64,000 bases of DNA from Escherichia phage SkaterBoy_Bas90. The notes below the pieces were generated by a model, which saw only the letters and a list, made by a program, of their open reading frames with translations, was not told the origin of the DNA and made no database searches. Positions 5,187 through 63,946 of this stretch are shown here, in pieces (positions within the stretch are counted from its first letter, which is position 1; each line of letters opens with the position of its first letter). Both the position numbers and the translations under genes were made by a program. The DNA lies in the sequence record PQ850626.1; one strand, 5' to 3'.

Positions 5187-5198
5187 TAATAGTATAGG
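5187..5198 (+). promoter_or_regulatory. TAATAGTATAGG motif upstream of capsid gene (member of recurring GTATA motif family)
   Basis: similar to motifs at 6853, 12519, 23704, 40737, 45106. Confidence 0.25.
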
Positions 5199-6793: not shown

Positions 6794-6800
6794 AATCAGA

Positions 6801-6830
6801 CCCTGCCTTCGGGCGGGGTTTTTTCGTTTT
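6801..6830 (+). terminator. rho-independent terminator (UUCG tetraloop hairpin + T tract)
   Basis: CCCTGCC-TTCG-GGCGGGG followed by ttttttcgtttt. Confidence 0.8.
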
Positions 6831-6852
6831 AAGACCTATACAAGCTAGTGTG

Positions 6853-6862
6853 TAATGTATAT
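6853..6862 (+). promoter_or_regulatory. TAATGTATAT motif, candidate promoter element ~35 nt upstream of 6895 gene
   Basis: recurring motif; lies just after terminator and before SD AAGGAGG. Confidence 0.35.
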
Positions 6863-12518: not shown

Positions 12519-12530
12519 TTAATATATAGG
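12519..12530 (+). promoter_or_regulatory. TTAATATATAGG motif upstream of 12541 gene
   Basis: member of recurring motif family; overlaps SD. Confidence 0.25.
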
Positions 12531-22029: not shown

Positions 22030-23685
22030 ATGCAACAGACAACTTACGCTCAGGTCAGAAGTCGTGACCCGAGAAATACTTTCTATGGTGTTAATCCGGG
22101 AGCGGCTTCGGCCTCTCCTTATATGGCTAGACCTACTCAGACAGCAGATATTTCTATGTATCAACGTCCTGCTGTACCTTCATCTCTTGCGGGTCTTGTC
22201 TCTCAGGCAGAAGAAGATCAGAATGCTATGGTTAATCCGGGATTCCAGCAACGTCTTATGGAACAGCAGAATCAAGGAACTCCTACCAGTCTTCAGGGTA
22301 TTGATATTGGAGCACCGGCCCCTGTAGCAGCTAATCCTAACCTATCCACTGATCAAGGTTTACAGGATGCTGGGCTTATGCCTAGTGACCCTCTTCCGGT
22401 AACACCTCCTCCTAAACCACTAGAAGCTGGTCCTATGGAGTTTACTCCTTCTCAGGTGGAACAGGCACAGGGTGTGATTAACACTCTTGCTCAAGGACAA
22501 GACACTGGTGATGGAATGGCTGCTGCTACTCGTGCTAAAGATCAGGAACGTGTTAACAACGATATCTTGCAAGTTGCGAAAGCTAAAGACCCTTCAGAAG
22601 CTTGGAACAAATTACAGAAAGAACCATTCTATCAGAACTCTAGTTTCTACACAGGTTTGATGGGTGTAGGTCTTTCAATCATGTCAGGTAAGTCTCCTAT
22701 CGAAGCTTTCCAGATTGGTCAGGGAATGGCTAATCAAGATGAGACTAAGAAGCAACTGGAAGCTAACCGTGATGCTCTGATTGAACAAGGCTTCTCTCAA
22801 GACTCGATCGCAGCTGCTATTGCTAACGGAGACCCGTCTCTACTGAAGATGAGAGCTGTAGACCCTGCTCAGAAAGAAGCGTTGTATGCTGCTCGTGAAG
22901 AACGACAAAATGCTGAATGGGATAGACGTCAACAGATTCAAGAGCAAACTATGCGTGAGCGTGCTGATGAAACTCGTCGTGCCGCTGAAGAAAGGGCTAA
23001 CATGAACTTTGAACGTCAGAAAGAGTTGATTGGTTATCGTGATAAAGTTAAGGCTGAACGTGCTGAACAAGCTGCTCAGAGTTTTAACTTTAACCCGAAA
23101 GAAGTTCGTCTTGCTCAGAATACAGCTGAAGGTACGGTTGCTAAGCAGTGGGCAGAGAAAGGTGGCCTGTTTAACCAGTCTAACAAAGACTTGGATTTGG
23201 CTGATAAGGCTGTTAAGGATAAAGACTATCAGACAGCTCGTTCTGCTTACATGCAGGCTATCATGAACTCCGCAAGGGCTGAAATCGGTGCTACTCGTTC
23301 TCTTACCGAAGAAGACTTGGGGCACTTTGCAGAAGACCCATCAATCTTCGTTCGTGTTGGCAACAAGTTTGCGCTGAAATCTGGATGGCGTCCTACTGAT
23401 TCTGCTCTTGCTTATGCTCGTAAGCAAGCTAATGTTGGTCACACCTCTGCAATGAAAGGTGTTGCTGATGCTAAGAGAGCTACGATTGAAGCTTACATCG
23501 GTTCTGGTATGGATAAGAAGAGAGCTACTGCATTGGTTAACCGTGCAATCCCTTCTGGTGGTTTCTATGACCCTCTAGGTGTTTTCTCTGAACAAGCAGA
23601 AGAAGCAGTTGGTGGTGCAGCAACCAATCCTAAGCTTAATGGTGCTTTATCAGCTGTCGAAGACACTAGCTGGTTTACTCAATAA
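22030..23685 (+). CDS. internal virion protein
   Basis: 551 aa, position between fibres and large ejection-like protein. Confidence 0.45.
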   Translation: MQQTTYAQVRSRDPRNTFYGVNPGAASASPYMARPTQTADISMYQRPAVPSSLAGLVSQAEEDQNAMVNPGFQQRLMEQQNQGTPTSLQGIDIGAPAPVAANPNLSTDQGLQDAGLMPSDPLPVTPPPKPLEAGPMEFTPSQVEQAQGVINTLAQGQDTGDGMAAATRAKDQERVNNDILQVAKAKDPSEAWNKLQKEPFYQNSSFYTGLMGVGLSIMSGKSPIEAFQIGQGMANQDETKKQLEANRDALIEQGFSQDSIAAAIANGDPSLLKMRAVDPAQKEALYAAREERQNAEWDRRQQIQEQTMRERADETRRAAEERANMNFERQKELIGYRDKVKAERAEQAAQSFNFNPKEVRLAQNTAEGTVAKQWAEKGGLFNQSNKDLDLADKAVKDKDYQTARSAYMQAIMNSARAEIGATRSLTEEDLGHFAEDPSIFVRVGNKFALKSGWRPTDSALAYARKQANVGHTSAMKGVADAKRATIEAYIGSGMDKKRATALVNRAIPSGGFYDPLGVFSEQAEEAVGGAATNPKLNGALSAVEDTSWFTQ

Positions 23686-23703
23686 GACCTAAGTCCTGCC
23701 TTC

Positions 23704-23716
23704 TATAATGTATATA
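23704..23716 (+). promoter_or_regulatory. TATAATGTATATA motif, candidate promoter for 23753 gene
   Basis: contains exact TATAAT; ~37 nt upstream of ATG 23753. Confidence 0.35.
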
Positions 23717-23752
23717 GGGGGTAGGACATTTTTATTTATAAAAGGAGACGTT

Positions 23753-26700
23753 ATGGCTAACATTAAACCGTGGGAAGAAGCTTCCAAAGCTCCTGCGTAT
23801 CTGAATGCCTCTCCGGAGCAACAAGCTCAAATGAGAGAACAATATAAGGCAGCAGGTGGCTCTATTCCTGAGGAACAACCAGTAGCACAACCACAACAAG
23901 AAGAACGTGGTGCTATAGGTGAGTTTGCTCAAGGTGTGTCAAATGCTCTTCAATCTGGTGGTGCAAATATTGCAGCTAGTGCTGCTAAAGGTATTGGTGG
24001 TTTAGTTGAGATTGGTGAGAATCTAGCTGGAGCACAAACTAGTTATGGTAAGCGTATCCAAGAGAACTCTCAGAACCTTCTGAAAGAACGTATGGATAAG
24101 ATTGAGGATGGGATTGGTAAAACTGTTGGTCAGTATGCTGGTGTTGCTGGTGATATCGGTTTGACAGTTGCTAACCCATTGGCTGCTGCTGCTATCATCG
24201 CAGGTCGTGAGACAGGTCGTGCATATGCAGACCAAACCCCTGAAGAGGGAGAAGATAAGTCTATTCTAGATGCAGCGTTAGTTGGTGGTGCTAACTATGC
24301 GGCTCAGAGAATCCTTCCGGGTGCTGTTGGTACAGCTGAGTCCACACTTGGACGTATTGGTCAGAACGTTGCTAGTAACGCAGTGGCTGGTGCTAAAGGT
24401 GGTGCTCTTGTGGGTGCTGCTGAAGCTCAGAATAAGCACGGAGATGACACAACATTTGCTAATGTATTAGAAGGTGCTATCGAAGAAGGTGCTATGGGTG
24501 CTGCATTCGGTGGTGCAGTTGGTGGGGTTCATGGTTTGATTAGCCGTCCGGATTCTGCTGTCTTCAAGAATACTCCAGAGTATGCGAAGACTGATATTGC
24601 TGCTGATGATGAACTAATTCGTAGTGCTAAGAATATTGATGAACTGAAAGAAGCTTACTCTAAAGCTGAAACTGCTAACGCTGCTTCTGCTCTTAACCTT
24701 CTGGATGAGAATGGATTCCGTATTACAGATGCTGTTGCTGTAGATTCTCCTGCCGCTCAGCGTATTCTTAATACTGACCAAGCTCGTGCTGAGAAAGCTG
24801 CTTCCGTTCAGAAAGAACATTCCAACATTCCGGGCCTCAACCCTTTAGCTTCTCCTGCTAAGACTCGTGGTAAAGCATTCGCTGATAACGAGCACAACCA
24901 GAAGCAGGCTGTTGCTATGAAGGATGCAATGGCTGACTACACCAAAGACAACACGAAAGCTCTTACAGATGTTCTAGATAATCTAGACCGTGAATTAACC
25001 TCTCTCCGAGCTTCTGGTGATTTTACTGGTAGTCCGATTGATATTAAGAACCGTACACAAGCTGACCGTGATTTCATTGATGCTTACAAGACTTTCTACA
25101 ATGAAGCAAATCGATTCAAAGCTCGTGATGGTGAAGACTTTAATAACTTTGTAGAGAAAGCTGCTGAACTACAGAAGATGGCTGATAATGTTTCTCCAGA
25201 GATGAAGAAAGCTATCGGTGGGTTGAAGAAACTGAAAGGTATGCCTGAAGGTTTTAATCCTATTCAAGATGCTTACACTCTGAACAATACAGCTAAGTTC
25301 ATGAGCAATCAAGACCGTGGTTGGACTTCCCTGACTGATGATGGATTCCGTGAGGCTTCTTCACCTAGTCTGGTAATGAACACTCTTGGTGCTGCTAAGT
25401 ATGCTCTGAATCGCTTCTCTTCTCAGCGTGCTCGCTCTCAACGTGTTAAGCAACAAGAATCTAACAGCGAAGCTATCCGCTCTCTTGCTCGTGGTGATTT
25501 GGAAGTTGCTCGTGCTAAATCTACTGCTGATGAAGCTCGTGCTAAAATGGAAGAAGAACCAGTTGTTGATGACATTAAATTTAAGACGCAAAATGACGTG
25601 GAAACCGAACCGGTTCGGGAGCCTTCTTCTAGTACTGTGACGGAAGAAAATCTTCCTTCTTCTGCTCCTCAAGAAACTCCTCTTACAGCTCGTGATTTAG
25701 TTGCGCAAAGACGCGCTATCCGTCAGGCTGAACAGCGTCGCGCTGAAGAAGAGGCATTGGCTGCTCAAGAAGCTCCGGTCGAACAAACTCCACAGGCTGA
25801 ACCTCTCCCTGCTCGTAACCCTCTAGAGGAGCGTCGTGCAATGGAACAGCAACGTGCTCAAGAAGAGGCCGCACAGGCTCCAGAACCAACCGTAGAGGAA
25901 CCAACAGTCAAAGCTGAGCCATTACCTGCTCGTGCTCCTAAAGCTCCTAAGGAAGCTGTACAGGACGTTAAACCGGCAAGTGGTGTAGAGCGTTTAGCTG
26001 CTATGTCAAGTGCTGCTCGTCAGGCTACTAAAGATCGTGCAGAACGCTTTGCTCGTTCTCTGTACTCTAAGGCTGCTAAAGCTAAAGCTACTGCTGAAAA
26101 CTTCTTGGCTTATAAAGGTGATCCTAAGGAATTGATGCGTCGTATCCGTCAGGAAGACAATGCTATCAACACTGAACGTCATGAAGAAATGGCTCGTAAC
26201 CAGCTGGCTTCTCAGCAAGGTATTGCTACTGCTAAGAACAACACTGTACGAACTAATTTTGCTGAATGGGTTAAAGAACGTGGTCTGCCAGAAGATATTG
26301 CCACTAAGGCATTACGTGCTGAAGAGAAAGGCTTAGGTGGGAACGTAACTAACTTAGATAGTCTGAAACGTCGTGCTGAAAGGTTGTATCAGAAGCAGCG
26401 TGAGGATGAGTTTGATAGGCTATATCAACAAGCTCTTGAAGAGAACAAAGCTTTCGATAATAAGAATGCCCCTAAGCTGGTTGACCAGAAGAAAGAGCTT
26501 CAGTCTGAGATTGATGCTTTGATTGATTCAGAACCTTTACGTCCTGCTCAGAAAGATGCTATGCGTAAGCTGATGAATGACTTTGTAGATGGGAAGTTTA
26601 AATCTTCAGAGAAGGCTGGTAGGGAAGAGGCTTTGGAAGTTGGTCAGATGAAGGATATTTGGGATGGGTTTATTAACACCTACAACAGAGAAGTGAATGC

Positions 26701-31029: not shown

Positions 31030-31039
<10 letters not shown>
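30140..31039 (-). CDS. P-loop nucleotide kinase (dNMP kinase-like)
   Basis: 299 aa; Walker A 'GPPGCGKDT'; start uncertain. Confidence 0.5.
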
Positions 31040-32525
<1,486 letters not shown>

Positions 32526-32526
<1 letters not shown>

Positions 32527-33825: not shown

Positions 33826-34241
33826 ATTTTAATTTCCTTATTTAATTTGAAAGATTGTTGCTCTCTTTGAGCGGTTATGTATAGTATACATTACGCTTAT
33901 ACCGATAAGAGTACTATATAATATAAGTATCTTTGGTAGTAGATATATCACACTAGTAATGTATATATTGTATAGCTGATAAAGTTATTGCAGGCTTGTA
34001 TATTGGGCAATTCACAGAATCCCTTGCAAGTACCGAAGGGCAGGAGCCACCTGCGAGATAAAAATAGAGAATTAAGGAATCCTTGATTTAGGTTGTAGGG
34101 ACTCCTAGGGACTTTGATTCTCTATTTAAAAGAATATTAATTACTTATTACCTAAATAATTAACTAACTTACTTAAACCAAATTCAAGAATAATAGATAA
34201 AAAGATTATTCCTAAGAAAGCTAAAAAGTAAAGAATATAAG
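33826..34241. other. 416-bp ORF-free AT-rich region with inverted/direct repeats (candidate origin/promoter hub)
   Basis: repeated GTATA motifs, TAGGGACT x2, 11-bp inverted repeat AAATAGAGAAT/ATTCTCTATTT. Confidence 0.4.
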
Positions 34242-34490
34242 TTACCATTCAAGTAAACCTTTAAAATTAGATTTTTCTACTATCCTCTGATAACGAAGAT
34301 TAGAATCAGCTTGTTTCTTTAACATCTCATTATATTGATCTCTAATAGAGTCTTTATAAACTACAGGTTCTTTAAATAATGAGATCTTGTTCTTTTCTTC
34401 TTTCATCAAAGACCTTCCTAATCTCTTGCAGAGAAACAGCTTTATAGTCAATTTGCTCCATTGATGTACAGAAATATCTCCAATCATCAA
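34242..34490 (-). CDS. hypothetical small protein (start probably internal)
   Basis: track ORF overlapping 3' end of phosphoesterase gene in another frame. Confidence 0.3.
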   Translation of the reverse strand: MMIGDISVHQWSKLTIKLFLCKRLGRSLMKEEKNKISLFKEPVVYKDSIRDQYNEMLKKQADSNLRYQRIVEKSNFKGLLEW

Positions 34491-40736: not shown

Positions 40737-40748
40737 GTATACATTATA
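40737..40748 (-). promoter_or_regulatory. TTATAATGTATAC motif (minus sense), candidate promoter for 40701 gene
   Basis: contains TATAAT; ~35 nt upstream of ATG. Confidence 0.3.
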
Positions 40749-45105: not shown

Positions 45106-45118
45106 TCTATATACATTT
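45106..45118 (-). promoter_or_regulatory. AAATGTATATAGAG motif (minus sense) upstream of 45070 gene
   Basis: member of recurring motif family. Confidence 0.3.
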
Positions 45119-45142
45119 GAGAGTTACCATATCTACTACCAA

Positions 45143-63870: not shown

Positions 63871-63946
63871 TGGTGCGCCCTACAGGACTCGAACCTGTAA
63901 CCAATAGCTTAGAAGGCTACTGCTCTATCCATTGAGCTAAGAGCGC
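63871..63946 (-). tRNA. tRNA-Arg (anticodon UCU), CCA encoded
   Basis: hand-folded cloverleaf: acceptor GCGCTCT/AGGGCGC, D-arm GCTC-AATGGATA-GAGC, anticodon arm GTAGC-CTTCTAA-GCTAT, T-arm ACAGG-TTCGAGT-CCTGT, discriminator A + CCA. Confidence 0.85.

Follow-up and report, generated by a model that had tools for sequence, protein, structure and literature searches.

Positions 23,700 to 23,720 carry a short motif that recurs upstream of genes on both strands, and this locus raises the question of what the motif is and what reads it. An earlier note on this DNA, made from the letters alone, proposed it as a candidate phage promoter element, possibly specific for a sigma factor encoded by the phage. 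Here this proposal is set against the published work on related phages and against the distribution of the motif in the window, by which we mean the whole stretch of 64,000 nucleotides analysed (Escherichia phage SkaterBoy_Bas90, PQ850626.1).

The motif and its sigma factor

Two 4-kb stretches of the window, one surrounding the 23706 site and the other surrounding the sigma gene, have matches in 98 phage records, every one of them an E. coli or Shigella podophage of the phiEco32 group (Kuravirus and Suseptimavirus, Gordonclarkvirinae). Over the 4-kb stretches, the closest records have a nucleotide identity of 97-99% and phiEco32 one of approximately 95-97%, and on sequence grounds the window is that of an E. 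coli Kuravirus of phiEco32 type. Compared with the phiEco32 annotation, it begins at gene 7 (the large terminase). The late genes run rightward up to about 28.2 kb, and beyond this point the middle and early genes run leftward; the non-coding share of the window is 7.1%. Phage 4E8, which is referred to repeatedly below, has late genes that are only about 78% identical to those of the window. Also present are a macro-domain (Appr-1-p processing) protein adjoining the sigma gene (32086-32526, minus strand), a YspA/SLOG-family protein directly downstream of the sigma gene (31030-31422, minus strand) and a tRNA-Arg(TCT) at 63871-63946 (minus strand), all three being known features of phiEco32-type genomes.

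According to two later accounts, six promoters of the gp36 holoenzyme have been mapped in phiEco32, and these share a single element, tAATGTAtA (PMC8948821; PMC4281155). The mapped start sites are given as 6-8 bp downstream of the element (PMC8948821), and the promoters are listed as late (P6, P13 and P26) or middle (P40, P58 and P68) (PMC8948821 Table S3). Cryo-EM and mutational work puts AATGTA at -14 to -9, where -14A, -13A, -12T and -11G are read by the N-terminal domain of gp36, while the C-terminal domain contacts -37G and -34A of P68 (PMC12276001). The same cryo-EM paper describes -37G as essential at P68. That work includes in vitro transcription from both P26 and P68, and the open complex whose structure it determined contains P68 (PMC12276001, PDB 9m7y).

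The window encodes counterparts of both phage proteins in that complex:

31419-32066, minus strand: sigma factor gene, gp36 orthologue, matching PDB 9m7y chain F.
50849-51097, minus strand: gp79 orthologue, matching PDB 9m7y chain G (E = 1e-51, all 82 residues).

Residues 2-215 of the sigma ORF (214 residues) are 100% identical to chain F (E = 1e-145), with a weak match to Pfam Sigma70_r2 besides. The sigma factor that had been read from the ORF list is thus real, and is identical to phiEco32 gp36. The position of the gp79 orthologue corresponds to phi32_79. In phiEco32, gp79 inhibits the sigma70 holoenzyme and co-activates the gp36 holoenzyme, with a stimulation in vitro of 4-fold at P26 and 3-fold at P68, and the authors of the 2025 paper liken this dual role to AsiA/MotA (PMC12276001).

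Of the six published promoters only P6 falls outside the window, upstream of it. The other five show one-to-one orthology with phiEco32, with near-identical flanks and the same downstream genes. Transcription start sites (TSS) were predicted by extrapolation, with AATGTA taken as -14 to -9 and the T of the element as -15:

6853-6861, plus strand: P13, late, TAATGTATA; phiEco32 9101, upstream of phi32_13; predicted TSS 6868, gene 13 start 6895.
23706-23714, plus strand: P26, late, TAATGTATA; phiEco32 26014, upstream of phi32_26; the site flagged by the earlier note.
33885-33893, minus strand: P40, middle, TAATGTATA; phiEco32 36640 (minus), upstream of phi32_40; predicted TSS 33878, gene 40 start 33825.
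40738-40746, minus strand: P58, middle, TAATGTATA; phiEco32 42945 (minus); predicted TSS 40731, gene 58 homologue start 40701.
45110-45118, minus strand: P68, middle, aAATGTATA; predicted TSS 45103, gene 68 homologue start 45070.
45129-45142 (-39 to -26), minus strand: P68 upstream element, TTGGTAGTAGATAT.

At P26 the element spans -15 to -7, the predicted TSS is G23721 and the start codon of gene 26 is at 23754; from about -26 to +50 this promoter is identical to that of phiEco32. At P68 the cryo-EM contacts -37G and -34A fall on G45140 and A45137 of TTGGTAGTAGATAT. All five sites are co-oriented with the downstream gene, the motif starting 41-68 nt before the start codon, and the predicted leaders of 27-53 nt each have their own Shine-Dalgarno sequence.

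The primary mapping of the gp36-dependent promoters of phiEco32 was reportedly that of Pavlova et al. in 2012. In the TAATGTATA motif we recognise the promoter element already published for the phiEco32-type sigma factor gp36. With an identical sigma factor and promoter regions that are near-identical to the experimentally mapped ones, the reading of these sites as specific for the phage sigma is borne out. It is correct, and has been known experimentally since 2012 and from a structure since 2025, so that the finding of the motif is a correct rediscovery of something already known. From the raw sequence alone, the reading recovered every one of the five promoters that this well-studied phage sigma system has in the window.

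We therefore hold it very probable that the motif serves a phiEco32-type phage (Kuravirus) as the -10-like element of its middle and late promoters. As shown for phiEco32, gp36 would take the place of sigma70 on the host core RNA polymerase. Its N-terminal domain would read -14A to -11G of tAATGTAtA and open the DNA at -11, so that transcription would start about 7 nt past the element, while gp79 would displace sigma70 region 4 and stabilise the gp36 open complex. P13 and P26 would drive the plus-strand late (virion) genes, and P40, P58 and P68 the minus-strand middle genes. That the sites fire in this phage, and exactly where their transcripts start, is what we infer from the phiEco32 experiments.

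The promoters have in common with those of phiEco32 the 9-nt element, the orthologous positions, the downstream genes, an identical sigma factor and gp79. Nothing of substance differs for the five, and the copy at 33957 (phiEco32 36704), to which we return below, is unlisted there. The late promoters of T4 have TATAAATA at -10, which gp55 reads together with gp33 and the sliding clamp. They resemble the present system in that a sigma-like phage factor on the host core reads a single short AT-rich element of -10 type together with a phage co-activator, but the proteins are unrelated, the element is a different one and there is a coupling to the replication clamp, whereas here gp79 is repressor and co-activator in one. 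The related Salmonella phage 7-11 shares with the phiEco32 type a prolate podophage form, the promoter layout and a phage sigma (gp47) on host core polymerase, and its transcripts also start just a few bp past the proximal promoter element (PMC8948821). It differs in that its late promoters have a bipartite consensus, GTAAtg-N16-aCTA, and in having a sigma factor only about 15% identical to gp36, and it has neither a middle class nor host shut-off (PMC8948821).

Strict and loose copies of the motif

The number of copies depends on how the motif is defined. Exact TAATGTATA is present five times in the window (6853+, 23706+, 33885-, 33957+ and 40738-), against 0.66 expected from shuffles. The shorter AATGTATA is present six times, the sixth copy being the aAATGTATA at 45110-45118 (minus strand), and all six are in non-coding DNA (binomial p = 1.3e-7); the ORF list puts 23706 inside an ORF solely by way of an in-frame ATG within the motif, and gene 26 starts at 23754. 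An unbiased scan of all 8-mers and 9-mers found AATGTATA to be the most intergenic-restricted 8-mer, with TAATGTATA at the top of the 9-mers. A AAATTAAATAAGGA motif was hinted at by the k-mer scan but is not significant. Once a mismatch is allowed, the enrichment over the window is lost, with 17 matches to TAATGTATA against 17.6 expected, and the bare AATGTA core is likewise not enriched in the window (40 against 41.7 expected). Correction for background frequency thus upholds the recurrence described in the earlier note for the strict TAATGTATA and AATGTATA, which are intergenic and far above chance, but not for the loosened forms, which are at chance level.

With a PWM derived from the six phiEco32 elements in the literature, the six strict sites score no less than 12.6 bits, and the next match in the window, at 10.7 bits, is inside a gene. 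The bases -14A, -13A, -12T and -11G are present in all six strict sites. P13, P26, P40, P58, P68 and the 33957 site are also all kept in 4E8. The promoter features annotated in the 4E8 record are software predictions for sigma70 and were set aside as uninformative.

All five published promoters in the window had been flagged from the sequence alone, along with two sites that are not promoters. The first, at 5187-5198 (TAATAGTATAGG), has an inserted base, scores -8 to +3 bits in the PWM and does not fit the element. The surrounding gap of 41 nt, in which the AGGAG of the capsid gene is located, is conserved throughout. The second, at 12519-12530 (TAATATATA), scores 9.6 bits, which is among the noise from coding sequence, and has A in place of the base-specifically contacted -11G. 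4E8 has AATACACATA at this position, with AGGAG alone retained. The likeness of both sites to the motif is mostly that of the Shine-Dalgarno sequence AGGAG, 8-10 nt before the start codon. The ORF-free region 33826-34241 had been said to contain copies in both orientations, and indeed the sites at 33885 (minus) and 33957 (plus) stand, but the remaining two are mere flanks: 33875 (plus), TTATGTATA, is the transcribed downstream flank of P40 in reverse sense, for which conservation is lacking in ECBP2 and 4E8, and 33966 (plus), TATTGTATA, is the downstream flank of the 33957 site, with no separate conserved element. A loose definition of the motif admits false sites, and only the strict AATGTATA core is informative.

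A further near-consensus element is found upstream of the sigma gene at 32130-32147 (minus strand), inside the 3' end of the macro-domain gene. It consists of TAAGACCTA followed directly by TAATGTTTA, the latter also reading TATAAT, and its PWM score is at noise level. 4E8 does not have the macro-domain gene, and has TAATGTAAA 18 nt before the sigma start codon, at 34331-34339 (minus strand). The element could be the sigma70 promoter mentioned in the SU10 work, or could serve a weak autoregulation.

Three other explanations of the motif have to be weighed. The one that fares best is that the sites are host sigma70 promoters, of -10-only or extended -10 type, with the phage sigma incidental, and this we judge to be very unlikely. 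As noted earlier, two sites do contain an exact TATAAT overlapping the element, namely P26 (23704-23709) and P58 (40748-40743, minus strand), and the authors of the SU10 paper speculated that the middle promoters might be read by sigma70 as well as by the phage holoenzyme (PMC4281155). However, the TATAAT is preceded by TTC at P26 and by CTT at P58; the TGn of an extended -10 promoter and a convincing -35 hexamer are absent at all sites, and the suggestion of extended -10 promoters is not supported. P13, P40, P68 and the 33957 site have no TATAAT, and the conserved core AATGTA has G where sigma70 needs a flipped-out -11A. In phiEco32 itself the promoters depend on gp36, and transcription by sigma70 is shut off by gp79 (PMC8948821; PMC12276001).

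Less credible still is that the motif arises by chance, or as a structural by-product of AT-rich intergenic DNA and terminator palindromes. Such an origin would fit the chance-level counts of the loose versions, and it is true that the P26 element is the tip of a terminator hairpin and that the P40 element lies within a near-palindrome. Yet the strict 8-mer is confined to intergenic DNA with the significance given above, and P13, P58, P68 and the 33957 site are outside hairpins, while the palindromic partner at P40 is not conserved. The element is invariant across relatives, and it is the flanks and spacers that vary. The conservation pattern and the published mapping have between them already refuted this explanation.

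We give practically no credence to the third, a translation-initiation or mRNA-leader element, a role that the earlier note had kept in view for copies close to a start codon: the 5187 and 12519 sites end in AGGAG at a suitable 8-10 nt, but they fail the strict element, 12519 being conserved in its AGGAG only, and as AGGAG tails rather than instances of the motif they confine the translational caveat to non-motif sites, whereas at the strict sites the motif starts 41-68 nt from the start codon, ends before the predicted TSS and is therefore outside the mRNA, each gene has a separate Shine-Dalgarno sequence, and one strict copy (33957) has no downstream ORF at all.

Upstream elements and the hairpin at P26

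The gp36 promoters differ from one another in what surrounds the element. P26 coincides with a predicted structure:

23693-23733, plus strand: terminator-like hairpin after gene 25, with a 15-bp stem (23693-23727), an AUGUA loop and then U5.

The hairpin has a predicted MFE of -22.9 kcal/mol (z = -4.66), and 4E8 keeps the same 15-bp stem despite five substitutions in the arms. It looks like an intrinsic terminator for transcripts arriving from P13. Its tip and loop are the P26 element, so that the promoter appears to form part of the very structure that terminates the operon before it. As transcription from P26 is predicted to begin within the 3' arm, P26 transcripts would not contain the 5' arm, and the hairpin could not form in them. 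By this overlap of hairpin and promoter, upstream transcripts would be stopped and P26 transcripts would escape. P13 is also preceded by a terminator hairpin (6798-6821) with a U-tract.

TAAGACCTA is common to P13 and P26, in both cases at exactly -38 to -30 (6830-6838 and 23683-23691, plus strand), and the same is true in 4E8; P6 of phiEco32 does not have it. TAAGACCTA may be a late-class upstream element, distinct from the GGTAGTAGATA of P68. When one mismatch is allowed it is not enriched (24 matches against 17.6). The -37G is found only at P68 and the 33957 site, P13 and P26 carrying A at -37 within TAAGACCTA, and P40 and P58 differ again. Since the upstream (-35) regions thus differ among the promoters, the P68 structure does not fully explain how the others are recognised.

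It is worth adding that at 1677-1699 of phiEco32, which is outside the window, the P6 element TAATGTAGA has AGGAG directly after it and ATG 6 nt later. With a start 6-8 bp downstream, the P6 leader would be 5-7 nt long and would contain no Shine-Dalgarno sequence.

The plus-strand site at 33957 and its candidate RNA

One strict copy of the element corresponds to none of the published promoters:

33933-33965, plus strand: seventh gp36-type promoter candidate, with TTGGTAGTAGATAT at 33933-33946, a 10-nt spacer and TAATGTATA at 33957-33965.

The site shares with P68 the exact 14-mer TTGGTAGTAGATAT, in the same register, and has both -37G and -34A. Transcription is predicted to start at A33972 and would run away from gene 40, against the middle operon, with no ORF downstream. 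The orthologous site in phiEco32, 36704 (plus), is not one of the six mapped promoters. The phiEco32 genome as a whole has six copies of [T/A]AATGTATA, namely the five published sites with that sequence and 36704 (plus). Within the literature short of the 2012 primary paper, the site is absent from the published list of six promoters, and Pavlova et al. may have seen it and dismissed it.

Both elements of the site are kept, with a variable spacer between them, in 20 of 21 relatives (15 from GenBank or IMG/VR and five of six metagenome contigs), the exception being contig L041, which has TAATaTATA. This conservation extends across Kuravirus and Suseptimavirus. In some phages P40 and the 33957 site are set apart by a natural insertion of about 120 bp, and the two are therefore independent modules. 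A scan of IMG/VR for the P68-type architecture returned mostly relatives that were already known, together with unrelated short contigs. The arrangement and conservation of the two elements suggest that 33957 (plus) is most likely a gp36 promoter as well.

A transcript from this site would enter the sole sizeable ORF-free gap of the middle region, where the following features were identified:

33972-34130, plus strand: candidate non-coding RNA of about 160 nt, with an inferred 3' end.
33972-33988, plus strand: 5' hairpin of 6 bp, beginning at the predicted +1.
34062-34127, plus strand: long 3' hairpin of the candidate RNA.

Reading the plus strand of 33972-34130 by eye, no ATG or GTG was seen. 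In phages with 78-79% identity in the neighbouring late genes, the identity over the intergenic region is 91-93%. The plus strand is predicted to fold at -45.8 kcal/mol (z -2.1), against -35.3 kcal/mol (z -1.05) for the minus strand. Two pairs of the 5' hairpin have compensatory changes, and a G-C/G-U alternation fits the plus strand only. In the alignment of this hairpin 97% of the cells are paired, and the covariation is 0.44 against 0.17 when shuffled (3/500), a weak test with six distinct sequences. Comparison of the window with L003, L033-L035 and L041-L045 shows that the middle domain (33990-34030 in the window) exists in two unrelated versions, of about 40 and 66 nt, with the same conserved helix-forming ends. 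The closing helix UUGCAGG/CCUGCGA surrounds this swappable domain, and both versions keep the architecture of 5' hairpin, closing helix and long 3' hairpin.

The AT-rich hairpin at 34062-34135 (AAAUAGAGAAU...AUUCUCUAUUU) contains the direct repeat TAGGGACT twice and hardly varies among the relatives. Read on the minus strand, it lies directly after the 35-codon gene 41 (34141-34248) and runs into U5. The 34062-34127 hairpin is probably the terminator of this minus-strand gene, and possibly works in both directions. A simple scan found no canonical plus-strand terminator for the candidate RNA; the hairpin fails the simple criteria on that strand, so that the 3' end of the RNA is uncertain.

The candidate RNA, taken from the window and three relatives, had no match in Rfam 15 at E <= 1, and no similarity was found in complete E. 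coli genomes. Against the sense mRNAs of the window it has no complementarity longer than 11 nt, which is the chance level. Searching the literature for small RNAs or transcriptomes of Kuravirus or phiEco32 yielded nothing relevant.

We hypothesise that the 33957 site is a functional gp36 promoter, back-to-back with P40, and that it yields a structured non-coding RNA of about 160 nt, a proposal for which we see the chances as evenly balanced. Such an RNA could regulate as a small RNA, act by antisense or interference on the P58-driven operon, or serve replication as a primer or origin transcript. In T7 the primary origin lies behind phage promoters. The 33957 site is similar to the phage small RNAs and the primer or origin transcripts of the T7 kind in that a phage promoter faces an ORF-free, conserved and structured stretch; it is different in that its candidate RNA has no relation to known RNAs by sequence or in Rfam, and an origin role is hypothetical.

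As far as the motif itself is concerned, the finding as stated is a confirmation, and the window needs no new promoter hypothesis. The 33957 site with its structured downstream stretch is a modest new lead. If transcribed, the site would provide a natural test template for the gp36/gp79 system, and with the candidate RNA this group of phages would have its first assigned non-coding RNA.
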